Source: Candidatus Latescibacterota bacterium (GTDB taxonomy: Bacteria; Latescibacterota; UBA2968; GCA-2709665). From it: DNA of 64,000 nucleotides. The translations under genes and the position numbers were made by a program. The first letter of the stretch is position 1, and every line of letters begins with the position of its first letter. Under the pieces are notes generated by a model. The model was not told the DNA's origin, ran no database searches, and worked only from the letters and a program-made list of their open reading frames with translations. The stretch covers positions 384,001-448,000 of the forward strand of contig CBDDDZ010000003.1 of NCBI GenBank assembly GCA_965226795.1, in the 5' to 3' direction. Of this stretch, positions 1,936 through 20,482 are shown piece after piece.

Positions 1936-2547
1936 ATGAGCACGCCTACAATTCAACTCGACAGAGATCGCCTTCACAGCGCCGGCCTCGGTGTCTTCTT
2001 TCGTCCGAGCCAGATCGATGAGTTGGGGATCACGTACGACCAACTCCGCCGTTTGGTCTCAACCGGGGCCGTTGAGCGGGTCAACCGGGGCCTTTATAGG
2101 CTCGCCAGTGCGGAGCCGACTGAACACGACACACTCGCTGCTGTATGCGCGCGTGTACCCAATGCCGTCATATGCCTGCTTTCGGCGCTCAGCTTTCACG
2201 AAATCGGTACCCGGCTGCCACACGAGGTCTGGATTGCGATTCCCCATAAGGCGAGACCCCCTCGCCTTCCGCAATTCCGAACCCGACTCATCAGGTTCAG
2301 CGGCGCCGCCTGGACCTATGGTGTGTCAGACACCGCATTCGAAGGCGTTCCGGCGCGAATAACCTCGCCCGCTCGCACGATCGTCGATTGTTTCCGATTC
2401 GAACACTTAATCGGACGCGAAACTGCTATTGAGGCATTGCAAGACGGTTTCCGGGAAAAAAAGGTGACTACCGGCGCCCTGCTGCGAACACTTGAGGAGC
2501 TACCTTCGCGCCGGCTGAGCGCGGCCCTGGAAATAGGAATTATATGA
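1936..2547 (+). CDS. abiEi: Type IV TA antitoxin, AbiEi family
   Basis: N-terminal wHTH (VERVNRGLY), ICLLSALSFHEI, TSPARTIVDCFR; ATGA overlap with the toxin gene. Confidence 0.88.
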   Translation: MSTPTIQLDRDRLHSAGLGVFFRPSQIDELGITYDQLRRLVSTGAVERVNRGLYRLASAEPTEHDTLAAVCARVPNAVICLLSALSFHEIGTRLPHEVWIAIPHKARPPRLPQFRTRLIRFSGAAWTYGVSDTAFEGVPARITSPARTIVDCFRFEHLIGRETAIEALQDGFREKKVTTGALLRTLEELPSRRLSAALEIGII

Positions 2548-3497
2548 TCACCGACGTCGCGGCGTCCATCAGATCTCGCCTGTACAATAAGGCAAAAAAA
2601 GTCGTATCGAGTTCCAGTTTTTCCTCGTGCGCTACGCCTGCGAAAGATTCCTATATCGCCTCGGCGCGTGCCCAGTACGTGATCGGTTTATACTCAAAGG
2701 CGCAACTCTGCTTGCCGTTTGGATGGATGAACCCTACCGCGCTACTCGCGATATCGATTTATTGGCGTCCTCCGGTGTCCCTGACGAAATGTACGTGCGA
2801 GAAACTATGAAAACCATCTGCAATGTCCCCTGCCCGGAGGATGGCCTGGTTTTCGATCTCGATAGCTTGCGGATTTCTATGATTCGTTCGGAGCAAGCGT
2901 TCCCGAGCCAACGCGCCAAGCTCAACTGTTATCTTGGAAGCGCGAGAATTCTCACCCAGGTAGACTTTGGTTTCGGCGACGTCGTCACGGCCGGTGCCGA
3001 GCAAGCGAAATTAAAGACCCTCATTGGCGGTGTCCCCGAACCCTCGTTGCTAGTTTATCCGCTGTCGACAAGCGTTGCCGAGAAGTTTGAAGCCATGGTG
3101 CGATTTGGGCAGCGCAATAGCCGTATGAAGGACTTCCATGACATTTGGGCCCTGTCGGATCGGTTTTTCTTTGATGGCGAGAAACTCCGCCGGGCCATCC
3201 GGGACTGTTTCAGCCGGCGTGGCACGGATCTGAACTCCGAGACTCCGGTTGCTCTCACTTCGTCGTTCTACTCGGACAATGACCGGAATAGGCTGTGGCG
3301 CAACTATCGGGTTGAGAACGGGCTCATGACACCGCCACCCGAATCTTTCGGAAATCGTTGGTGAGCGGTTGCAGAGATTTCTTGAGCCTATCCGTGAAAG
3401 CGTCCTGGCCGACACTTCGTTCGACCTTTGTTGGCCCGCTGGTGGACCGTGGCAACCCGTTTCGGACAAAGACAGCGAGAACGGAGACCGAGCTTGA
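2544..3497 (+). pseudogene. abiEii: AbiEii/AbiGii nucleotidyltransferase toxin with two frameshifts
   Basis: AASIRSRL, ERFLYRL, FILKGA, RATRDIDL, AEKFEAM, NSRMKDFHD. Frameshifts in the A7 run (~2594-2600) and near 3351; the typical tail WPAGGPW lies in another frame ending at 3497. Confidence 0.85.
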
Positions 3498-6363: not shown

Positions 6364-7761
6364 GTGAATTACCGGAAGGCGAACACCAACCATCCATTGA
6401 AGAATAGGCTAAATCCCTACCCGGCCTACAAGGACTCCGGCATCGAATGGCTGGGTGGGATACCAGCGCATTGGGAGGTGAAACGGCTGAAGTATGCTGT
6501 AAATTTGAACCCAGCGTCAACCGAGGCAAGAACCCACGACGATTCGCTTGAGGTCTCGTTTGTACCGATGGAGGCTGTTGGAGAATACGGCGGCCTTGAA
6601 TTGGTGACAACTAAGCCAATACGCGATGTATACGATGGTTACACGTACTTTCGTGAAGGGGATGTTTTGGTCGCGAAAATTACCCCGTGTTTCGAAAATG
6701 GCAAGGGCGCGATCGCTACTGGGCTCGTTAATAAAATTGCATTCGGGACCACGGAGCTGCACATCCTACGGACCAAAAGGACGACAAACCGGCAATTCCT
6801 GTTCTACTTGTCTATGGGAGATGCGTTCAGAAAACTTGGCCAAGCCGAAATGTATGGTGCGGGCGGCCAGAAACGCGTGCCCGAATCATTCATTGCCGAC
6901 TTATTGCACCCGCTCCCACCTCTCCCCGAACAGCGGGCCATCGCCGCTTTCCTTGATCGCGAGACGGCCAGGATCGACACCCTCGTCGAGAAGAAGGAAC
7001 GGCTAATCGAGTTGCTACAGGAAAAGCGCTCCGCGCTCATCAGCCACGCCGTAACGCGGGGTCTCGACCCCGACGTACCCACGAAGGACTCGGGAATCCA
7101 GTGGCTGGGAGAAATTCCGGTGCATTGGGAAGTAAGGAAGATCAAATCTCTGTTGGTTTGCCGAAAAGGTGCAATCAAGACTGGTCCATTCGGCAGCCAA
7201 TTGCACAGTTTCGAAATGACGCATAGCGACATAAAGGTGTTCAATCAGCGGACAGTGATTGATCGCGATATTTGGACCGGTGTGAACTACATTTCGATGG
7301 CTAAATTTAACGAACTACAAGCCTTCGAAGCGTTTCCAGGTGACTTGCTAATTACTACACGGGGCACGATCGGACGATGTCTGATTATTCCATTCGAAGC
7401 TCCTCGAGGTATTCTCCATCCCTGTCTAATGAGGATTCAAATAGACTCAAAGCATGCGTACGATCACTATATCGAGTTGGTCATAGAGAAAAGCGGATTG
7501 ACTTTGGCACAACTTCAATTGATGAGTCATGCTACGACAATTGACGTGATTTATTCGGATTCATTAAAAGAGACTCTACTATCAATTCCACCACTCCCCG
7601 AACAACGCGTTATCGCCGCCTTTCTTGACCGCGAGACGGCAAAGATTGACGCCCTCGCCACAAAGGTCCGAGAAGCCATCGACCGCCTGAAGGAACTCCG
7701 CTCGGCTCTCATTTCCGCGGCGGTGACGGGCAAGATCGATGTGCACGAAAACGTGCCATGA
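6364..7761 (+). CDS. hsdS: Type I R-M specificity subunit
   Basis: Two repeated conserved regions (KDSGI.WLG.IP.HWEV; PPLPEQR.IAAFLDRETA.ID) flanking two TRDs; ends ISAAVTGKIDV. The true start may be ~6397. Confidence 0.95.
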   Translation: MNYRKANTNHPLKNRLNPYPAYKDSGIEWLGGIPAHWEVKRLKYAVNLNPASTEARTHDDSLEVSFVPMEAVGEYGGLELVTTKPIRDVYDGYTYFREGDVLVAKITPCFENGKGAIATGLVNKIAFGTTELHILRTKRTTNRQFLFYLSMGDAFRKLGQAEMYGAGGQKRVPESFIADLLHPLPPLPEQRAIAAFLDRETARIDTLVEKKERLIELLQEKRSALISHAVTRGLDPDVPTKDSGIQWLGEIPVHWEVRKIKSLLVCRKGAIKTGPFGSQLHSFEMTHSDIKVFNQRTVIDRDIWTGVNYISMAKFNELQAFEAFPGDLLITTRGTIGRCLIIPFEAPRGILHPCLMRIQIDSKHAYDHYIELVIEKSGLTLAQLQLMSHATTIDVIYSDSLKETLLSIPPLPEQRVIAAFLDRETAKIDALATKVREAIDRLKELRSALISAAVTGKIDVHENVP

Positions 7762-7910: not shown

Positions 7911-8761
7911 TCACTGTTTTGTCGTCAAATTCCATCCACCTCCGTCTTTGAGAATTAGCTTCATATTCCCGTCCTGATCCGTTCGGTATACCTTGTTTCC
8001 CTTGTTGGAACCGCCAGAATATTTCTCGTATAGTTCGATGGCCTTAGAGTTGGGGTGGCCGTGTGGGTTATCACCAACGGACACAATTGTCATCGCTGGA
8101 TCCATCGCTTCTTAACGTGATCAACGTAGTAGTGTTTTTCATCTTGGGGGTCATCGAAAAACGTGCTTGATCCATGATGGCCTGCTAAAAGTATGTCGCA
8201 CAAGAGTTCACTATTGTTGTAGTCTTCTTTAACTGCATATCTCCATGTCTCAGCATCGCTATCGCCCGTAAGCATTACGCTTCCTTCTCGCGAGACGTCG
8301 TTTGCACTACGTTGCTCAACCTTAAGTACTATGCCTTGCGCGTTGGCGTTTTTGGGTAGTCGTTCGTCTCGCGCACTCAGAAAGCGAAATCGTGTGCGAC
8401 CAAATCCCTGGCGCTTCAACTTCTCTTTGAGAACCGCGCCGACGGTTCTCCTTAGCTGCATGTATTGACGATATTCCGGGGCGTCAATCGAGGTTCCTGG
8501 ATGCCCGCTATCCCAGATCTTCTTAATGGGAAAGTATTCGTTTAACTTGGTTATACCGCGAATATGGTCGGCGTCTCGGTGAGTGCATACAAACGCGGCT
8601 AATATAGACTGCCAACCGATCTGTCTAGCGACGTACTGTAATACTCTATCTTCGTTCTCGTCGGTGATGTTGCAATCAACGACAAAATTGTCTCCATTTG
8701 CCGCTTCAATTAGCGACATGTTGCCCTGTCCAACGTCTATGAAATGTACAATCGTACTCAT
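7911..8761 (-). pseudogene. ComEC/Rec2-like MBL-fold hydrolase split by one frameshift near 8105
   Basis: VHFIDVGQG, THRDADH, LTGD, GHHGS; the continuation in another frame reads IVSVGDNPHGHP...YRTDQDG. Confidence 0.8.
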
Positions 8762-8850
8762 TGTTGGATACTCCACTTCAAGAACTCGAATCTAAAATGC
8801 GTCAGTGTAGATTGCTATTGCATGGAGATCACTTGCTACGAAACTTCCAT

Positions 8851-9603
8851 TTAGTTTTGGCAACTATCAGTGAGATCGTCCCTGTTAAGGCCTACAACCG
8901 CCGCGAAAAAACTTTCTGCGTAACGATCGGCCTTTTGGCGAGTATACTTCGGTAGGATGTATCCTAAGATTACAGTTCCCACCGCGATGAGTGTAGAAAT
9001 GAATGCCAAGAGTGAAGAACCGTTCTGACAGAGATATGTTACCCAGCATCCGACGAGGCTGGCCATAGCGAATGTAATCCACACGCATCTGAGCCCCGTC
9101 AAATTTCGCGCAAACCCGTAGTCGCTGTTGTGTAGACGTACCCGCTCCCCGATAGGTGATTTCCACAACCGACTGCGAAGCTCACTGAGAGCATCGTTAA
9201 TCACGGCCTCAATCTCGTGTTCATTGCCAGTCTCGACGGCTTGAGCGATGTCAAGGCCAACCAAGTCCTTTATGACCTGATACCAACGCTTTTTTTGTTG
9301 ATCGGAAGTTGAATTATCGTCTGGATGGAGCCATCGGTTCGTCGGAGCGTCGTGGGGCCAGGCAGGCCACATTTTTGACTGCAATCGATTGCCAAATGCC
9401 GAAGCAAGATGAGACGCGAATACAGCTAGAAGGGTACTGAACACAACGTAGGACACAAGAAGCTTCACAATTCCGAGAATCGGGATACCGAATGCAACTG
9501 CGACGGTCCACAACGGTAGAACAGAAAGTGCGGCAGGGATAAAACGGGCTTTTCGTTCGTATTGGTCACTCAGGTTTAGGTAGTTGAGCCATCCCTTATT
9601 CAT
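8851..9603 (-). CDS. Four-TM membrane protein, putative defence effector
   Basis: Two N-terminal and two C-terminal hydrophobic helices around a soluble segment (YERKAR..PA, N.DYGFARN); overlaps the upstream gene by 8 bp. Confidence 0.7.
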   Translation of the reverse strand: MNKGWLNYLNLSDQYERKARFIPAALSVLPLWTVAVAFGIPILGIVKLLVSYVVFSTLLAVFASHLASAFGNRLQSKMWPAWPHDAPTNRWLHPDDNSTSDQQKKRWYQVIKDLVGLDIAQAVETGNEHEIEAVINDALSELRSRLWKSPIGERVRLHNSDYGFARNLTGLRCVWITFAMASLVGCWVTYLCQNGSSLLAFISTLIAVGTVILGYILPKYTRQKADRYAESFFAAVVGLNRDDLTDSCQN

Positions 9604-11881
9604 TCGCTATCGCCTCACGTTGGAAGGTGCTTTTCTCCGTTTTGCCAATGTAAAATCCAATATCTCGCCCTTCCCCCACTATTGTCATCGTTGCTGGGTA
9701 GCCGTCGGCTTGCATCAGTTCCTCAAGCCATGCAAGAACCTTCAGATCGTCCTTGCTTGGCTTCGTGCCTGCACCGCTCGGATGTGAATGCCATTCGCCC
9801 ACATACTCAATCATGCCGTGGACTACTTTGGTACGTTGTGCGACTTTCTCCGAAAGCCCCTCACATCCCCGGATGTATAGAGTAGGCCATTCTTCGCTAT
9901 CAGGTGGCGAAGGCAACGCATCGACGACATAGACGATACGTCTCTCCATATCGAAGGAACCCAGTAGAACGCCACCAGTTTCGTTTGGAAGTTTGGATTG
10001 ACGCACACGCGAGAGGGTCTCTATTACGACGTTGTCAGTGACAACTGTCCAATCGTTGGTAATTTTACGCACAACGGGGGCGGGGGATACTTTGACACGA
10101 TTTACGACACCGTCCTCGTTTGAACGCCAGATCGTAATTTGTGCGTCAGCACACCGTACGGCATCGCATACTGCTCTCCCGCCATTGCTCGCGTGAAGAC
10201 CTACCATGTATTGGGGGAGTATGCTTGTGATATCCCGACAGGATTGGGCATAGCGATACCTCCCGGGTGGCTTGTCAAGATGTCCTGACAAGCATCGGTT
10301 GTTTAGAACGGCTCTATAGTACTGCATTTCGAGGGCATCGACGGTAATGTTTCGTTGCTTATCTTCCGCGAGCAGAACGAGGTCTTTCCCGGACGGCGAC
10401 AGGAATAGCGAGATCCTCCGCGCTGTGCTATTGCAATCCTGCGCAATCATCCGTGCAACGCCAACCGATGCCGACATGTCTAGGATCAGGTCGGCCTTAG
10501 CCAGCGCATTGGATAGTTCTTGAGTTCGTCCACCAGGGGATAGCACATTTACTGGAAATGAGCTAAACAGGTCGGAACCGAAAATTATAGTATTCGCTAA
10601 GTGTGCAACGGCATCTGCCTTGTTCCAACCCACAAAACTACCGTCGAGGGCATGCCGGGCTAAATTGTGTGGCAATAGTATGTCGTGATCGATCAGTGTC
10701 CAAGTACCAAACCCTGTTCTCGCAATATTGATTGCAACTTGGGAACCAAGCGCACCCATACCGATCGCAACAACCCTCATATCGACCAATTCATCCTCGC
10801 CATTGAGCTTGGCTGCCATTGAGCGATCGAGGTGATGAACCAGATTCAGCACTGCTATGTCTACATCGTCGCCCGTTTTCGATGTGTCGGGCGGCAATAA
10901 ATAGCCAACCTCTTCTCCCAGTAAATCCCAAAGGCCGATCTTGGCGCCCAGTTGGCGAATTTGCAAGCCCTCAGCACTCTTGTCTTCTGCACTATCCAAA
11001 AGCAAAAACGCCCAACTATCAACTGCCTCGCTCTCTTCTTTTTCATGCCGCATTTTTGGAAACAAAATAACGACGAGAAGATTGGCGTCGAGAACAGATC
11101 TGTCCGTCTGATGCCAGGTCTGGAGACGTTTTCGTAATTCAGAAATAAGGTCGACCTTGGCAACCGCCGTCATGGCAGCAAGGTCAGCAAGTGTCGACGG
11201 AATTTGATGAATGACCCCATGCGTCTGAGGTTCGCAACGATGTACACTTGCAAGTAGCGGCGGCGGTCCTTCATGCGGTTCGCCTGTTAGTGCGATCAGA
11301 AAAAGGCCTTTACTATTATTGTCCGATGTCACCGAAACTACGACTAGCGGGGTTGGTAGGCGCTTCTCCAATTGTTTGGTAGAAGGAAGGACGATGTGCC
11401 CGTGGAAATCCATAAGAAGGGGTTCAAGAGGTTGGTCGTCCTGGTGGAGTTTTCCTTGACTGTTTAAGGATAGCCACCGACGGATGTCGTGGACGAACCT
11501 AGGGGAAGTCCAGCATCGCTTGATTTCCTCGTAAGGTTCTTCGTACACACACATATTTCGAGGATACTCTTGCCGGTGCAGATTGAGGTGCGGCACTCGC
11601 GGGAAATTAACACGTAGGGCATGGACAACAGGTACGTTGTCGTCCTCTTTAGTAAACGACGCGGATATGCGCTCTGTTGCCTTGATCGGGTAACGCTGCA
11701 CCTGTGCGATTTCAACGTCGACCTCAAACACCACAATTTCAATTTTATCCCGCTTACGACATTCGACGAACCGGGCAAAGTCAATGCGCTCAGCCGATAG
11801 ACTGAGCGCGAGATCCTTGGCCTTTGAAATCTCAAGGTCGTTTGGCCGGACGACGTCCCCCGAGACATCAAAATAGCTCAT
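9596..11881 (-). CDS. Prokaryotic E2 - E1(ThiF) - JAB fusion (Cap2/Cap3-like)
   Basis: E2-like FPRVPHLN...NMCVY; ThiF IGMGALGS, IDHD, HNLARH, candidate catalytic Cys in SCRDITS; JAB ETGG...EWHSHP...PSKDD. Confidence 0.9.
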   Translation of the reverse strand: MSYFDVSGDVVRPNDLEISKAKDLALSLSAERIDFARFVECRKRDKIEIVVFEVDVEIAQVQRYPIKATERISASFTKEDDNVPVVHALRVNFPRVPHLNLHRQEYPRNMCVYEEPYEEIKRCWTSPRFVHDIRRWLSLNSQGKLHQDDQPLEPLLMDFHGHIVLPSTKQLEKRLPTPLVVVSVTSDNNSKGLFLIALTGEPHEGPPPLLASVHRCEPQTHGVIHQIPSTLADLAAMTAVAKVDLISELRKRLQTWHQTDRSVLDANLLVVILFPKMRHEKEESEAVDSWAFLLLDSAEDKSAEGLQIRQLGAKIGLWDLLGEEVGYLLPPDTSKTGDDVDIAVLNLVHHLDRSMAAKLNGEDELVDMRVVAIGMGALGSQVAINIARTGFGTWTLIDHDILLPHNLARHALDGSFVGWNKADAVAHLANTIIFGSDLFSSFPVNVLSPGGRTQELSNALAKADLILDMSASVGVARMIAQDCNSTARRISLFLSPSGKDLVLLAEDKQRNITVDALEMQYYRAVLNNRCLSGHLDKPPGRYRYAQSCRDITSILPQYMVGLHASNGGRAVCDAVRCADAQITIWRSNEDGVVNRVKVSPAPVVRKITNDWTVVTDNVVIETLSRVRQSKLPNETGGVLLGSFDMERRIVYVVDALPSPPDSEEWPTLYIRGCEGLSEKVAQRTKVVHGMIEYVGEWHSHPSGAGTKPSKDDLKVLAWLEELMQADGYPATMTIVGEGRDIGFYIGKTEKSTFQREAIANE

Positions 11882-13017
11882 CTTTGGCTACCTGCCCTCG
11901 GTGCGCGCCCTGACGTAGCGATAATTCCCGCGCTTACCACACTCTTTTTCAATGTTGCTTTGCTTTGTCCGATTTCAATCACCAACGGCTTAGGTGAGTT
12001 ACGTGACGGATGTTCCATCGTGACGACGAATTGCCCAACGAGGGCACGCGTGACGTCCTTGTAATAATTCGCAGCCTGTCGATGGGGTGGCTGCGAGTCC
12101 TCGTCTTCGTTACTACCTCCTACGGGAATGGGCTTGCTTGTTGATACCGCGATCGCCCCACGGTGTCCCTTTTTTTCGCATAGCCGCGCCACCTGAGTCA
12201 CGGGTGTGGTTTTGCTTGTGCCCTTTTCGGATCCTATGGAAAGATAGCTGCAGTGGTGGGGAATCTTGAGGATATCCCATTCAAGGTATTCTTCGTTTCC
12301 CTTGAACTCGGTAACGTCAACAATCTGTGACAGCACTTCATGGGTGGAATCAGCCAACATCAGCACTTTGGTATGTACTCCTGCGACATCGAAGGTTGCA
12401 TGCAGCACAAGCGAGTCCTCGTTCCGATCCTCGACCGGTTTATCGTTCTGTCGGATAGCAAATGGCGAGTGAACAAAAAACTCGATATGATCTTTACACA
12501 GAGAAAACTCAGGTGCGATCTCTCCCGCATCCGTAATCAAGTGAAGCCGGTCGTGGAGCTTCATGTCATTTTTTTCGCACCACTTCTCCAACCGTTCCGG
12601 CCGGGAGAAAACACGGATCCCTTTCGCCTGGCGGAATCGATAACGAGCCTCTTTCTGCAAAATGCGCGCCTCATCATCGTCAGGGCTCGTCTCCGTGATG
12701 AACGCAGAGGGCACCCACATCATGTTCATCTTGATGCGTTTTCCAACTTGGTACTTCATCGCATGTTCAAGGTAAAAGAAGTCGGAGGCCCCCTTGAAGT
12801 GATCTTTATCCAGGTGACTGAACGCTACGACGTCGAAGTAGTCACGATTGTTCTTCTTTAGGCCGTCTTTGAGGAGTTCCGGAAGGTCGCACCTAAGGTC
12901 ATTGTCGTCATTTTCATCTTTGGTTGCAGCGTAATCGATAAGGATTGTACGGTCACACGACAGTTCAATGCGACAGCAGTCGGCGTTTCCCAAAGGGAAA
13001 AAGGTCATTGTATGCAT
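11878..13017 (-). CDS. MBL-fold metallohydrolase associated with E2-E1-JAB
   Basis: FFPLGNAD, SHLDKDH, KIPHHCS; low-complexity tail ending SGRAPRAGSQR; GGAGG RBS; ATGA coupling to the E2-E1-JAB gene. Confidence 0.85.
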   Translation of the reverse strand: MHTMTFFPLGNADCCRIELSCDRTILIDYAATKDENDDNDLRCDLPELLKDGLKKNNRDYFDVVAFSHLDKDHFKGASDFFYLEHAMKYQVGKRIKMNMMWVPSAFITETSPDDDEARILQKEARYRFRQAKGIRVFSRPERLEKWCEKNDMKLHDRLHLITDAGEIAPEFSLCKDHIEFFVHSPFAIRQNDKPVEDRNEDSLVLHATFDVAGVHTKVLMLADSTHEVLSQIVDVTEFKGNEEYLEWDILKIPHHCSYLSIGSEKGTSKTTPVTQVARLCEKKGHRGAIAVSTSKPIPVGGSNEDEDSQPPHRQAANYYKDVTRALVGQFVVTMEHPSRNSPKPLVIEIGQSKATLKKSVVSAGIIATSGRAPRAGSQR

Positions 13018-13215: not shown

Positions 13216-14466
13216 TTAAATTCCGTTACTTCCTTCATCGTCGAGGCTCAGGTCGGAAACCGCGTCATCCACTTCGCCGGCATCCACATTCAACATGCCG
13301 ACTAAGTCGATAAGTTCGGCACGGGAGATTCTTTTCCGCCTTAATGCTTCCAGGGCTAACCCGACAAACCGGTCGCGGAATTCGTTACGCAGAGCCTGGT
13401 GGTCCGGTTCCGGAAAGCCCAAGAGCTGCTCCAATTTACGCCCCTTATCCATTCTCTCTTGTTCTAACAGGCTCTCGAGTTCGCTAGCTGTGAGGAGTCG
13501 GGTGCTTCTCAGGCGATAGCAGGCGGCGATTCGGCTGACGCCGAAGTGGTGCGCCATACGCACTACATCGTAGAGCTGTATTTTCTGGCTTCCTGCGGTA
13601 GATCGAGCCCGCCCACGAATTGGCGATCCCTCATCGAACACTTCGGCTTCCATACGGCTGGGTCGCCCCTTTCCGGAAGCGTGGATAAACTGGCGCACTG
13701 CCTCAGCAGGCATCAGAAAGCTGGCGGCAAAGGAGTTGGCACGGACCTCACGTAACTGATCTCGGTCGTGCTCTCGACTGACGAAACCGCCGTGGTCTCG
13801 GTCCATAAGCACGTGACAATATTCGTGTGCGTACGAGAATCGCCTGCGCGAAAAATGGTGCTCCCGATTTGCTACAATGAGGACTCCGATCTCCTGCTTG
13901 ATGAGTGTAAAACCTGATACGTCGTCCGGCAACGTGACCAAGGCAGTACGAACGTCCTGCGATTCGAGAAGCTGGGCGATTTCGGAGATTGACGTAAGGC
14001 CGAGCCCAAGGCGGCCGCGTTCTTCCATTGCGACGCGTTCACCTTGTTGAATAGCCTCCCACGTGGTGCGTGGTTGTGGAAGCGGGTACGCCGCGACTGT
14101 AACTAGATCGCGGTCAATATCCAGCAATTGCTCAAGTCTGGTCATTTCCCGGCCCAAAGCTAAACACCGGAGGAGGGCCTCTCGCAAATCCTCCTTGCTC
14201 GACAGATCCGGGTGAAGTCGGTACAACGCGACGAGTGCATTCTCCTCTTCAGGTTCCTCCTCCGCCACAAAGCTCTGCAGATCCTTACCGAAGAGGATGG
14301 CAAGGCGAAACAGTTCAATACCGTTGACCGTACGGTTGCCCAGTTCGATCTGTGCCACAGTAGAGCGCGAGACTCCGAGGTGATTTGCAACCTCGTCTTG
14401 GGTCAGGCTGCTGGATTCTCTGGCGCGCCTAAGCCTCTGGCCCAACTCTTTATGGTCAATTGCCAT
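13216..14466 (-). CDS. XRE-HTH plus ImmA/IrrE Zn-metallopeptidase regulator
   Basis: LGQRLRRARE..LTQDEVA..LGVSRSTVAQIELG HTH; RRFSYAHEYCH (HExxH); E.RANSFAASFLMP. Confidence 0.9.
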   Translation of the reverse strand: MAIDHKELGQRLRRARESSSLTQDEVANHLGVSRSTVAQIELGNRTVNGIELFRLAILFGKDLQSFVAEEEPEEENALVALYRLHPDLSSKEDLREALLRCLALGREMTRLEQLLDIDRDLVTVAAYPLPQPRTTWEAIQQGERVAMEERGRLGLGLTSISEIAQLLESQDVRTALVTLPDDVSGFTLIKQEIGVLIVANREHHFSRRRFSYAHEYCHVLMDRDHGGFVSREHDRDQLREVRANSFAASFLMPAEAVRQFIHASGKGRPSRMEAEVFDEGSPIRGRARSTAGSQKIQLYDVVRMAHHFGVSRIAACYRLRSTRLLTASELESLLEQERMDKGRKLEQLLGFPEPDHQALRNEFRDRFVGLALEALRRKRISRAELIDLVGMLNVDAGEVDDAVSDLSLDDEGSNGI

Positions 14467-15734: not shown

Positions 15735-16955
15735 ATGTGCAAACAAGGCACGGTCATGACACCAGGAAACAACGGGCGTAGCCCGCCCCCCGGTCGCACA
15801 ATCCGATGTCCGGAAGGCTATAGCGCATACGTACCGGCGCCACTTCCGCCCGATATTGCCTGGGACAAGGAACTCGCCCTCGCGCTTTCCCATGCCGACC
15901 GTGCAGTGGGCCGGCTCGCGGGCGAAGGCCGGCTGATGCCGATTCCGTATCTCTTTATCAGGGCATTCCTGTACAAGGAAGCGGTGCTTTCCAGCCGCAT
16001 CGAGGGCACGCAGGTTTCCCTGGGCGAATTGTTCGCCGCAAATGCCGGAGCGAGAGTCGAGCGAAGCGCAGAGGAATTGGAAGAGGTGGCAAACTACATC
16101 GTGGCGTTAGACTACGGCATCGATCGCTTGGCAACGCTTCCGCTTTCATTGCGCCTGGTTCGGGAACTGCACGAGCGGCTGATGCGCGGCGTGCGCGGCG
16201 ACACTGCGACGCCGGGCGAGTTTCGCCGCATCCAGAACTGGATCGGCCCGCCCGGATGTGGTGGGAGCAACGCGACTTACGTTCCACCGCCCCCGGATGA
16301 ACTGATGGATTGCCTCGGCGCGTGGGAGCGATTTCTCCACGACGAAACACTTCCTCCTCTCGTCCACGCCGCTCTCATCCATTCGCAGTTCGAGGCCATC
16401 CATCCGTTTCTCGACGGGAATGGACGTATCGGTCGGCTGCTCATTCCGCTGCTGTTCGCTGCCCGTGGCGTTTTACCAACACCGCTTCTGTATCTGAGCG
16501 CATACTTTGAATCGACGCGGCAGGAGTACTATGAACACCTTCTAAGGGTGACCCACGACGGAGAGTGGGAGGCGTGGCTGGTGTACTTTCTGCGCGGTGT
16601 TGCCGAGCAGGCCGAGGACGCCATTCGTCGGATCCGCCGCATCGACGAATTGTTCCATCGTTGGTCGGAGCAAATCGCAGGCGTCAGATCGGGGAATCTG
16701 GAGACGGTTTTGGAACTGTTCGTCGAATTCCCGTTCTGGAACGTGCGCATGCTCGCATCAAAGCTGGGGGTCGCCTACACGACGGCTCGGCGCGCCGTCG
16801 ATCGGTTGGAATCAGCAGGTATTGTCACGCAGGTTGGCGACGCAAAGCGAAACCGTGTATATTGTGCGGACGCAGTACTCGAAGTCCTCGACGCGCCGCA
16901 TATCGAAAATCAAGACGAACCGAAAGCCACAATGACTTCGCGAGTCGCATTATGA
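15735..16955 (+). CDS. fic: Fic family protein with C-terminal wHTH
   Basis: EAVLSSRIEG inhibitory-helix motif; HPFLDGNGRIGR Fic motif. Confidence 0.93.
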   Translation: MCKQGTVMTPGNNGRSPPPGRTIRCPEGYSAYVPAPLPPDIAWDKELALALSHADRAVGRLAGEGRLMPIPYLFIRAFLYKEAVLSSRIEGTQVSLGELFAANAGARVERSAEELEEVANYIVALDYGIDRLATLPLSLRLVRELHERLMRGVRGDTATPGEFRRIQNWIGPPGCGGSNATYVPPPPDELMDCLGAWERFLHDETLPPLVHAALIHSQFEAIHPFLDGNGRIGRLLIPLLFAARGVLPTPLLYLSAYFESTRQEYYEHLLRVTHDGEWEAWLVYFLRGVAEQAEDAIRRIRRIDELFHRWSEQIAGVRSGNLETVLELFVEFPFWNVRMLASKLGVAYTTARRAVDRLESAGIVTQVGDAKRNRVYCADAVLEVLDAPHIENQDEPKATMTSRVAL

Positions 16956-19900
16956 GTCCCGTTATTTCCGAAAAAGCCTTCGAAGACGCCATCGAGGCGG
17001 CTTTGCTTGGCCATGGCAAGGATGAGTCGGGGGGTCTTCCGACCGGGGTGCGTGAAGGCGGGTTGCCGATAGGCGGCCAGGCGATGGAACCCGGTGGCTA
17101 TTTCAAACGAAGGCACGAGGACTATGACCACGCACTCTGCCTTCTGCCCAAAGATGTTCTGGATTTCATTATTGCGACTCAGCCAAAGGAGTGGCGGAAG
17201 TTGTCCCAGCACTATGGCGCCCAGGTCAAAGGACGATTTCTCAAGCGCCTATCGTCGGAAATCGAACGCCGGGGCGTACTCCACGTGCTGCGGAACGGGA
17301 TCAAGGATATGGGCTGCACGTTCCGATTGGCCTATTTCCGGCCGGCCAGCGGGCTCAACGAGGAGACGCGCCGACTGTATATGGCCAACTTCTTCGCGGT
17401 TGTCCGCCAGGTACGCTACAGTATGAAAAACGAGAAAAGCCTCGATTTGGTTCTGTTCCTGAACGGTATCCCCATTTTCACCGCCGAACTCAAGAACCTG
17501 CTCAGCGGACAGACGGTCGAGGACGCGATCCGCCAGTATAAGACAGACCGGGACCCGCGCGAGCCGCTGTTCGGCTTTGGCCGATGTCTGGCGCATTTCG
17601 CGGTTGATCCGGATCTGGTCTACGTCACCACACGTCTCGCCGGTCCCAAAACGCGCTTCCTTCCCTTCAACCAGGGTAACAACCGCGGTGCGGGAAACCC
17701 GCCGGTGCCGCCTACGCAATCCGGCTATGCCACTTCGTATCTCTGGGAGGAGACATGGTCGCGGGACAGTGTGCTTGATTTGGTGCGCCAGTTTGTCCAC
17801 GAAGTCGAGGAGGAAGACGAGAACGGCCGCAAGACCGGCAGGAAATCGCTGGTCTTCCCGCGCTACCAGCAACTCGATTGCGTGCGAAAGCTCATATCGG
17901 ATGCCCGTAAGACCGGGGCGGGACAGCGCTATCTCATCCAGCACTCCGCCGGAAGCGGTAAGACGTTCACCATCGCCTGGCTCGCCCACCAGTTATCCAC
18001 GCTGCACGACATAGAAGACCGCCGCGTTTTCGATTCGATCGTAGTTATCACGGACCGGCGCGTGCTCGACCGCGCCCTCCAGGGCGCCATGCGCCAGTTC
18101 GAGCAGACCCTGGGCGTTGTGGAAAATATCGACACGACCTCGCGCCAACTCAAAGAGGCGCTCGAATCCGGCAAGACAATTATCGTGACCACGCTGCAGA
18201 AATTCCCGGTGATCGCCGCGGAAATCGGCGAATTGCCGGGCAAGCGATTCGCACTGATCGTCGACGAAGCGCACTCGTCCCAATCCGGCGAGAGCACCAA
18301 GAGCCTAAAGGCGGTGTTGGCGACGGGGTCTTTAGAAGAGGCGGAGGGCGAGGAAGCCGGGGCCGAGACGCCAGAAGAGGAACTCGAAAACGCGATCCTG
18401 GCGGAGGTGGAGAAGCGCGGGCGCCTGCCCAATCTCTCGACTTTCGCCTTTACCGCGACCCCCAAGCCCAAGACGCTGGAGCTTTTTGGCACCCGCCGCA
18501 CGGACGAATCGTTCGAACCGTTTCACCTCTACAGCATGCGGCAGGCCATCGAGGAGGGGTTCATCCTCGACGTCCTGGAGAACTATACGACCTACAAAGC
18601 CTATTGGCGGCTATTGAAGAAGGTGGAGGACGACCCGCGCTACGACAGGCGCAAGGCTACCGTCCTGCTCAAATCGTACGTTGAACTTCACCCGCACGCG
18701 ATTGACGAGAAGGTACGCATCATGGTCTGCCACTTTGTCGAGCAGGTGCACACCCAGATCGACGGGAAGGCAAAGGCAATGATCGTCACCCGCTCGCGAC
18801 TGCACGCCGTTCGCTTCAAGCTGGCGGTGGACAAATACCTCGCCGAACAGGGGCACGCGTTCAAAGCGCTGGTTGCGTTCTCGGGCACCGTCGAGGATGG
18901 CGGCAAGTCCTATACCGAGCCCGGCATGAACGGCGTTTCCGAGGTGCAGACCGCAAACACATTCAAAGGATCGGAATATCGATTCCTGATATGTGCGAAC
19001 AAATTCCAGACCGGTTTCGACCAGCCGCTGTTGCACGCGATGTACGTCGACAAAAAACTCGGCGGCGTGAACGCGGTGCAGACACTCTCACGGATTAACC
19101 GTACAGAACCAGGAAAAGACGGCACGATGGTACTCGATTTCGCCAACGATGCCGACGACATCAAGGAGGCCTTCGAACCTTATTACGAAACAACACTGCT
19201 GTCGGAGGCGACCGATCCCAACCTGCTCTACGAGATCCAGATGCGTCTGTCCGACTTCCCGGTATACGATCAGTCCGATGTGGATGAATTCGCAAGGATT
19301 TTTTTCGACAAGGCCGCCACACAGGACCAGCTTCATGCCGCGCTCAATCCCGTGGTCCACCGATTTCAGACGTTAGAAGAAAGTGAACAGCAGGAATTCC
19401 GGGGTCAACTTGTCGACTACGTGCGGCTTTACGCGTTTCTCGCACAGATCCTTCCGTTCGCCGACGTCGATCTGGAGAAGCTGTACGTCTTCTCGCGACA
19501 CTTACGCCGCCTGTTGCCAATGGACCGGGCTGAGTTGCCGCTCGAAGTTCAGCAGAATATCGACATGGAGTCGTATAGGATTCAGGAAACCCGCAAAGGC
19601 AAAATAAACCTGGAGCGAGGGACGACGAAGCTCGAGCCCGTCGGTACAAAGGACACATACTCGCTACAGCCGGAAGAAATGGAGACCCTTTCGCGGATCA
19701 TCGCCGAATTGAACGAGCGCTTCGGGGTCGAACTCGGGCAGGAGCACCGCGCCACCCTCGGCCAGATGATGGACAGACTTTCTGAAGACGCTGCACTCGG
19801 CGCCGCGGCGCGGGTGAATACGCGCGAAAATGTGCGATTGACTTTCGACCACAAGGTTGAAGAGACCATCCAGGGTATTGTGGATTCCAATTTCGATCTA

Positions 19901-20482
19901 TACAAACGGATCACCGACGACCTCGCTTTTGGAAACGTCATCAAAGATGTCCTCTTCGACCAGTTCCTGCGCACGAACCGTAGCGCGGAGGACCTCATCA
20001 AACAGGGCGAGTCGAAAACCCTGGAATTTAAATCGACGCTGCGCTGGAACCTGAAAGAGGACCGCAAGAACGATAAGCGCGTCACCCATGCGGCGCTCAA
20101 GACAATCGCCGCATTCCTGAACACGGAAGGCGGCGACCTTCTGCTAGGCGTCGCCGACGACGGCGCCGTCGTTGGAATAGAACGCGACCGGCTAGATACC
20201 GAAGACAAGTTCATGCTGCATCTCGCGCAGATCGTGCGCAACGGTCTCGGCGACCGCGCAGGCACGTGCATCGATCCCGGAGTTCAGATCGTCGACGGCA
20301 AGGCGGTATGCGTGGTGAGTTGCCAACGGAGCCCGGAACCGGTGTTCCTCTCGTGGAAGGGACTTGAGAAGGAAAACGGAGGTGACTTTTTCGTGCGCAG
20401 CGGTCCGGGAGCCGTTAAGCTCTCGTCAGACGACACCAGGGAATACATCCGTTCCCGGTTTGCCGGTTCAAATCCCAAGTGA
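16952..20482 (+). CDS. hsdR: Type I R-M restriction subunit with a C-terminal Schlafen/AlbA_2-like domain
   Basis: D...LNGIP...ELK nuclease, HSAGSGKT, DEAH, FTATPK, FQTGFDQP. The tail reads GESKTLEFKST...IAAFLNTEGGDLLLGVADDG. The start MSPVISEKAFE overlaps the fic stop. Confidence 0.93.
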   Translation: MSPVISEKAFEDAIEAALLGHGKDESGGLPTGVREGGLPIGGQAMEPGGYFKRRHEDYDHALCLLPKDVLDFIIATQPKEWRKLSQHYGAQVKGRFLKRLSSEIERRGVLHVLRNGIKDMGCTFRLAYFRPASGLNEETRRLYMANFFAVVRQVRYSMKNEKSLDLVLFLNGIPIFTAELKNLLSGQTVEDAIRQYKTDRDPREPLFGFGRCLAHFAVDPDLVYVTTRLAGPKTRFLPFNQGNNRGAGNPPVPPTQSGYATSYLWEETWSRDSVLDLVRQFVHEVEEEDENGRKTGRKSLVFPRYQQLDCVRKLISDARKTGAGQRYLIQHSAGSGKTFTIAWLAHQLSTLHDIEDRRVFDSIVVITDRRVLDRALQGAMRQFEQTLGVVENIDTTSRQLKEALESGKTIIVTTLQKFPVIAAEIGELPGKRFALIVDEAHSSQSGESTKSLKAVLATGSLEEAEGEEAGAETPEEELENAILAEVEKRGRLPNLSTFAFTATPKPKTLELFGTRRTDESFEPFHLYSMRQAIEEGFILDVLENYTTYKAYWRLLKKVEDDPRYDRRKATVLLKSYVELHPHAIDEKVRIMVCHFVEQVHTQIDGKAKAMIVTRSRLHAVRFKLAVDKYLAEQGHAFKALVAFSGTVEDGGKSYTEPGMNGVSEVQTANTFKGSEYRFLICANKFQTGFDQPLLHAMYVDKKLGGVNAVQTLSRINRTEPGKDGTMVLDFANDADDIKEAFEPYYETTLLSEATDPNLLYEIQMRLSDFPVYDQSDVDEFARIFFDKAATQDQLHAALNPVVHRFQTLEESEQQEFRGQLVDYVRLYAFLAQILPFADVDLEKLYVFSRHLRRLLPMDRAELPLEVQQNIDMESYRIQETRKGKINLERGTTKLEPVGTKDTYSLQPEEMETLSRIIAELNERFGVELGQEHRATLGQMMDRLSEDAALGAAARVNTRENVRLTFDHKVEETIQGIVDSNFDLYKRITDDLAFGNVIKDVLFDQFLRTNRSAEDLIKQGESKTLEFKSTLRWNLKEDRKNDKRVTHAALKTIAAFLNTEGGDLLLGVADDGAVVGIERDRLDTEDKFMLHLAQIVRNGLGDRAGTCIDPGVQIVDGKAVCVVSCQRSPEPVFLSWKGLEKENGGDFFVRSGPGAVKLSSDDTREYIRSRFAGSNPK

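Follow-up and report, generated by a model that had tools for sequence, protein, structure and literature searches.

The 6A-MBL system, in which a gene for a metallo-beta-lactamase (MBL) fold enzyme lies directly upstream of a gene for a single E2-E1-JAB polypeptide, goes back to the type 6a operon described by Iyer, Burroughs and Aravind in 2006 (PMC1779556). It is listed as an anti-phage system by van den Berg 2024, as represented in the papers that cite it, and these citing papers report anti-phage activity for the family, which is described as usually consisting of two genes. MBL pathways are classed by Ye 2024 together with type II cyclic-oligonucleotide-based anti-phage signaling systems (CBASS), and the idea that the MBL is a conjugation substrate has already been proposed in print (PMC11601596). 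Here we analyze such an operon on the minus strand of a 64,000-nt stretch of contig CBDDDZ010000003.1 from a Candidatus Latescibacterota bacterium (the window; all coordinates are positions in it). By analogy with the described conjugation systems, we consider it quite probable that the MBL enzyme is itself a ubiquitin-like modifier, trimmed of a three-residue extension (SQR) by the JAB domain, conjugated through E1 and E2, and released again by the same JAB.

Two kinds of described system offer the closest mechanistic parallels. The terminal Gly or Ala of the CD-NTase is required in type II CBASS (Jenson 2023, PMC10097602), in which Cap2 and Cap3 accompany the CD-NTase. Cap3 cuts a linear cGAS-GFP fusion directly behind cGAS's C-terminal residue, according to the Ledvina preprint (10.1101/2022.03.31.486616), the main text of which does not mention MBL. 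In the Bil system BilA is trimmed by BilC, and homologues of BilA have as many as nine residues beyond the Gly (Chambers preprint, 10.1101/2023.09.26.559546), and in the Bub system BubCD is described as acting on BubAB (PMC11601596).

The MBL protein of the window scores 391.3 bits against NF058524 (curated NCBIfam cut-off 220) and its partner 623.9 bits against NF058523 (cut-off 320). Because both genes exceed these cut-offs, we assign the operon to the known 6A-MBL anti-phage system, type 6a of Iyer 2006. The two genes stand in the described order and are adjacent in one operon, the MBL stop TGA (11878-11880) overlapping the partner's ATG (11881) in an ATGA sequence (11878-11881). The homologue in Gluconobacter oxydans, a species in Iyer's 6a list, is 49.6% identical, shares this layout and has the tail RAG-RWR. 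Unlike the usual two-gene form, the window copy is flanked by genes for a membrane protein, a second MBL and a helix-turn-helix (HTH)-peptidase regulator; its MBL carries a three-residue extension, as in a fifth to two fifths of homologues.

The likeness to type II CBASS lies in a large non-ubiquitin enzyme whose disordered tail ends in a conserved Gly, together with a JAB peptidase and fused E2 and E1 domains that contain a pair of catalytic cysteines, C111/C548 here and C109/C548 in Cap2 of E. cloacae. It differs in that JAB is fused to E2-E1, an MBL-fold hydrolase would be the substrate, there is no known second messenger, and none of the operon's five proteins has a nucleotidyltransferase match in Pfam, PADLOC or NCBIfam that would indicate a CD-NTase. 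As in Bil and Bub, a JAB peptidase may take a variable extension off a conserved Gly and expose a reactive end; their modifier, however, is a beta-grasp ubiquitin-like protein, and their E1, E2 and deubiquitinase are separate or otherwise fused. No beta-grasp gene was found among the operon's open reading frames (ORFs) of at least 80 aa or their family matches in the same three databases, shorter ORFs falling outside the listing; the genes abut. The MBL pro-nucleases of Hachiman, AVAST, Lamassu and defence-associated reverse transcriptases (DRT) also have a ComEC-related MBL fold in defence loci, but for those treated in PMC12799240 the described activator is a trypsin-like protease that acts at internal insertions, without E1 or E2, and the PADLOC matches of the MBLs here to LmuA, RTasMBL and Avs1a are weak and partial.

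The initial annotation had described a 380-aa hydrolase with a tail; the hydrolase and its tail stand, and the length, counted from the ATG at 13017, is 379 aa. The MBL motifs fall in invariant alignment columns (H68-x-D70-x-D72-H73, N199, D223, H254-H255 and P310-P311-H312). The closest solved fold is the MBL domain of ComEC (9IC4; Foldseek E-value 2.3e-14; Z 23.9, rmsd 3.3, 259 residues aligned), and in an atlas search the enzyme matched MBL clusters. An AlphaFold2 model built on a 46-row alignment has a mean predicted local distance difference test (pLDDT) score of 89.9, which falls below 50 at residues 360-379. Together with the sequence itself, which at 11878-11949 on the minus strand reads KKSVVSAGIIATSGRAPRAGSQR followed by the stop codon, this agrees with the flexible RAPRAG-SQR tail that had been proposed to follow the fold, and the tail is predicted to be disordered. 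R374 and G376 are invariant in 46 of 46 aligned loci; residues 359-371 vary. The enzyme thus has a tail, predicted to be disordered and with a conserved Gly, of the kind expected of a Cap2-type substrate (Gly or Ala), and Gly376 (codon 11890-11892, with SQR at 11881-11889) would be the conjugation residue.

Homologues had been expected to share the PRAG motif, often as their last residues, and they do so. A search found 3748 homologous proteins; in the best 120 of these, RAG is near the C-terminus of all 120, terminal in 93 and followed by 1-10 residues in 27, the window's own among them. A second set of 100 loci drew on 12 genomes, 7 plasmids, metagenomes (the best 80 of 509 hits) and the window, and contained 91 distinct MBLs: the Gly is terminal in 50, followed by 1-6 extra residues in 40, and the motif is lost in one (L048). 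For more distant comparison, 150 family representatives were listed at 50% identity, 89 whose match reached profile position 340 were hand-picked, and 11 longer or aberrant ones were set aside; of the remaining 78, 44 end in Gly, 30 have a Gly in the last eight residues and 4 end in Ala. The pattern [RK]xG at the end, or up to 7 residues from it, occurs in 64 of these 78 representatives; the corresponding figures are 2 of 57 for the C-termini of partner proteins and 3 of 49 for window ORFs of at least 250 aa. Judged by these counts, the end motif is more than chance.

Tail-less queries were also used, because the homologue and representative searches had included the tail, and they agree with the counts above. 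Among 168 genomes of the phylum, 11, the window's own included, have a match to one such query, NF058524, above its cut-off. The other 10 hits comprise 8 intact genes (6 with terminal Gly and 2 extended, one of the latter not independent of L001), one gene interrupted by an insertion element, its remainder ending in Gly, and one fragment. A search of two samples of 401 genomes with a tail-less alignment added 9 complete C-termini, 7 with terminal Gly and 2 extended, and an E2-E1 gene is next in all 9. In 82 loci with RAG the codons of the motif vary freely: Pro, Ala and Gly are each encoded by all four of their codons, and Arg by all six. Because every synonymous codon is in use at these four positions, selection acts on the peptide.

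Some loci depart from the common arrangement. L110 was considered as a tail-less, partner-less control and rejected: an insertion element divides its MBL, and a Gly-ending remainder and the partner gene come after it. In L135 (4876-9924) an insertion element that carries a transposase-like ORF interrupts a 6A MBL close to the 3' end of the gene, and the Gly-ending tail and the E2-E1-JAB gene come after the element. Three viral contigs (L102, L103 and L104) have a distant MBL ending in Ala (GGGYA) beside separate E2-E1 and JAB genes, a split, more CBASS-like arrangement.

The partner carries Prok-E2_A (residues 49-171), ThiF (357-486) and Prok-JAB (620-717) in this order in one polypeptide, as in 6A-MBL systems, and its best PDB sequence matches are Cap2. 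Its catalytic residues are intact: H98 and C111 of E2 (C111 at 11549-11551), the GxGxxG of E1 at 374-379 with N406, R409 and C548 (10238-10240), and E634, H698, H700 and D712 of JAB. We surveyed these positions in 58 distinct loci with a partner of at least 700 aa (26 extended, 31 terminal, and L048). All are kept in 58 of 58, save D712, which is present in 57, the miss being at a contig end. The intact adenylation site and the E1 and E2 cysteines expected of the enzyme for a Cap2-type substrate are thus in place.

Ratios of nonsynonymous to synonymous substitution (dN/dS, Nei-Gojobori) are low in extended operons (8 pairs: MBL 0.07-0.14 from 6 unsaturated pairs, partner 0.14-0.28 from 5 values) and in terminal ones (8 pairs: MBL 0.03-0.12, partner 0.08-0.25); window against L001 gives 0.137 for the MBL and 0.207 for the partner. 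On these estimates the extended operons are under purifying selection with intact active sites, and decay of the extended copies was rejected as an explanation. Cleavage behind the Gly by a peptidase best accounts for an end that must be a free Gly in most copies and yet tolerates arbitrary extensions in intact operons; the JAB domain is the obvious candidate.

Several points weigh against JAB-primed conjugation of the MBL. L048 has no motif, apparently through a frameshift, 3 of the 78 representatives end in Ala with no motif Gly nearby, and the homologues counted are related to each other. The dN/dS pairs were hand-picked and 2 of the 8 extended pairs are saturated, and the tree discussed below is quick and unrooted. 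Base 10488, within the partner gene, is absent from one contig (depth 4, that contig only); we trust the window here, because the reading frame is open and the protein matches NF058523 positions 2-665. In type II CBASS the Gly or Ala of the CD-NTase is described as the terminal residue (Jenson 2023, PMC10097602) and Cap3 is reported as dispensable for defence (Ledvina preprint, 10.1101/2022.03.31.486616); as a rule, then, CBASS does not require priming. According to a 2025 review (PMC12355090), Cap2 is still alone among known transferases in acting on a non-beta-grasp protein. Finally, JAB is equally intact in the terminal-Gly operons, and because it is kept as well where the extension is absent, its conservation proves no priming role.

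The last two facts about JAB-type enzymes, that Cap3 can be dispensed with and that JAB is as well conserved where there is nothing to remove, would suit a model in which the tail is conjugated, a host carboxypeptidase or endopeptidase removes the extension and JAB only reverses conjugates, as would the fact that many extensions are short and basic. Such trimming would, however, have to halt exactly at the Gly behind unrelated extensions of 1-10 residues in many lineages, and sequence-specific cleavage of linear bonds by JAB enzymes is described for Cap3, BilC and BubCD in the sources cited above; we regard host trimming as very improbable. The tail could instead bind the E1 or JAB site non-covalently, as a docking or inhibitory peptide; the MBL would then be a gated nuclease, freed or activated without ligation and without any need to remove SQR. 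Related defence MBLs associated with LmuA, Avs1a and DRT are indeed described as pro-nucleases activated by a partner protease (PMC12799240), and extensions are tolerated in 40 of 91 loci. Against this stand the stop directly after the invariant Gly in most homologues, as expected if a free carboxylate matters, the E1 and E2 cysteines invariant in 58 of 58 loci, and the fact that no other modifier gene was seen among operon ORFs of at least 80 aa, and a docking role seems very unlikely to us. It is barely credible that the extension blocks conjugation and marks a decaying copy, or that RAG is kept only as the ribosome-binding site of the next gene, even though the window codons CCG AGG GCA GGT, 8 nt before the ATG, resemble a Shine-Dalgarno site: across the 82 loci every codon for Arg (six), Ala (four) and Gly (four) is in use, which led us to reject the Shine-Dalgarno explanation, the distance to the next start varies, and the extended operons are under purifying selection, with intact active sites. 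Codon usage and dN/dS largely refute both forms of this explanation.

The initial annotation had also taken SQR for a mask over the Gly. As a conserved or regulatory mask SQR was rejected, since most homologues have no extension and the extensions share no sequence with one another. SQR is not a private sequence error of the window copy, because GSQR also ends three homologues that are 85-90% identical (P0002, P0004 and P0005). In 19 of 46 terminal-Gly loci the Gly codon is 8 nt from the next start, and the same 8 nt are found in the window, where a stop directly after the Gly is absent and translation continues to the TGA of the ATGA overlap. Close relatives preserve intermediates: L003 has TCA at the position of the TGA of L002, and L027 is without one base of that stop. 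With starts called heuristically, 30 of 37 extended loci have an MBL stop that reaches into or beyond the next putative start. A quick IQ-TREE phylogeny was built from 89 rows with the tail excluded, and L048 and the partial L054 were omitted from it. The extended and terminal states require 19 changes on it, at least 9 of them forced by starred branches, compared with an average of 29.5 in shuffles; the extended state is thus clustered as well, and on this tree gain is indistinguishable from loss. SQR is most likely a neutral outcome of stop-codon loss into the gene overlap, a tolerated read-through, and it would be tolerated since JAB would cut after the Gly whatever comes next.

In the JAB-primed mechanism that we favor, all chemical steps of which are modeled on Cap2/Cap3 and BilC, cleavage by the fused JAB domain behind Gly376 would remove SQR, and the E1 domain would adenylate the freed carboxylate. 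The MBL would then pass as a thioester onto E1 Cys548 and on to E2 Cys111, from which it would be transferred to a host or phage target; JAB would also reverse the MBL-target link. Because of the ComEC-like fold and the kinship with defence MBL nucleases, we lean slightly towards a ComEC-type metal-dependent DNase as the output, switched on or localized by conjugation during phage infection.

6A-MBL or MBL operons are mentioned in passing in PMC13276650, PMC13373217 and 10.1101/2025.09.30.679545, and a literature search of main texts, those of Ledvina 2023 and van den Berg 2024 excepted, found nothing on the trimming of 6A-MBL extensions. Conjugation of the MBL appears not to have been demonstrated, though it has been proposed. 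The mechanism is largely anticipated in print, both the system and the idea of the MBL as modifier being known. Ledvina 2023 (Nature) reportedly analyzes MBL operons, and that paper or van den Berg 2024 may already show the tail and its extensions.

The operon's third gene is not constant. In the 54 loci that have at least 600 nt downstream, it belongs to the window's membrane protein family in 28, is a patatin in 8, another membrane protein in 6, a second MBL-like gene in 4 (confirmed by Pfam for one of them) and something else in 1; 7 have none. The membrane protein family is a candidate effector. In L137 (4868-8419) a 1183-aa E2-E1-JAB protein runs into a patatin-like domain, an apparent fusion with its motif identified by eye, and the MBL ends GFG-KYL. 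In five distant representatives (P0142, P0150, P0169, P0174 and P0256), aligned up to residue 357, an AGS-C sensor domain, the Pfam name of which derives from cyclases and SMODS enzymes, replaces the Gly tail. CBASS consists of a cyclase and an effector, a layout mirrored by the MBL and its variable third gene. Because of this domain swap and the CBASS-style effector swaps, we entertain as a minor possibility that the 6A MBL is a signal-making enzyme in the slot of the CBASS cyclase and not a killing nuclease, JAB-primed conjugation switching on a new second messenger. Against this, descriptions of the family give it two genes, 7 of the 54 loci have no third gene, the fold is that of a hydrolase, and the neighbors of the AGS-C forms were not found: plasmids, viral contigs and the two samples of 401 genomes yielded no locus of an MBL-AGS-C fusion covering both parts.

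Table 1. Features of the 6A-MBL operon and adjoining genes in the window.
Feature	Coordinates	Strand	Evidence
6A-MBL system MBL-fold enzyme, 379 aa, ComEC-type fold	11878..13017	-	NF058524, fold match, invariant columns
Predicted flexible tail, residues 360-376, ending in conserved PRAG	11890..11940	-	pLDDT < 50, alignment
SQR extension and stop	11878..11889	-	sequence; 8-nt spacer after Gly codon read through
E2-E1-JAB fusion (Cap2/Cap3-like), 761 aa	9596..11881	-	NF058523; Pfam; Cap2 PDB sequence matches
250-aa membrane protein, about 4 predicted helices, third gene of operon	8851..9603	-	hydropathy scan, tblastn
Second, ComEC-like MBL gene, frame break near 8109	7912..8776	-	Pfam Lactamase_B; continues in another frame
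XRE HTH and IrrE/M78 metallopeptidase fusion, upstream	13216..14466	-	Pfam HTH_3, Peptidase_M78; PADLOC RmrA, capP, capH matches

The coordinates of the operon are collected in Table 1. The membrane protein matches no named family in PADLOC or NCBIfam and only unnamed clusters in the atlas search. The HTH-IrrE/M78 fusion is likely the operon regulator, CapH/CapP-like by its domain matches; several plasmid copies (L014, L017 and L019) have WYL-domain or HTH and ImmA/IrrE regulators upstream, like this fusion. The frame break in the second MBL gene is probably an assembly error in the window, because contigs of three sequencing runs are without the 2 bases at 8109. The contig of one run, which may be the window's own source and so not independent, covers the operon from end to end and departs from the window sequence at one substitution and two gaps, of 2 bases at 8109 and 1 base at 10488.

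The cassette is inserted within a type I restriction-modification locus (25-20482). HsdS (6364-7761, Pfam) lies on one side and Fic and HsdR-like genes (15735-20482) on the other, and an HsdM-like ORF stands at the start of the window, HsdM and HsdR being identified by eye. An AbiEi/AbiEii-like pair at 1936-3364 was also identified by eye only.

Since the system is already catalogued, the gain is mechanistic detail, unless the MBL should turn out to be a signal-making enzyme. If JAB-primed conjugation is right, extended copies would need JAB for defence and terminal-Gly copies would not, so that the priming role of JAB would be separable from its reversing role. Ubiquitin-like ligation of whole enzymes would then extend from the cyclases of CBASS to an MBL hydrolase.

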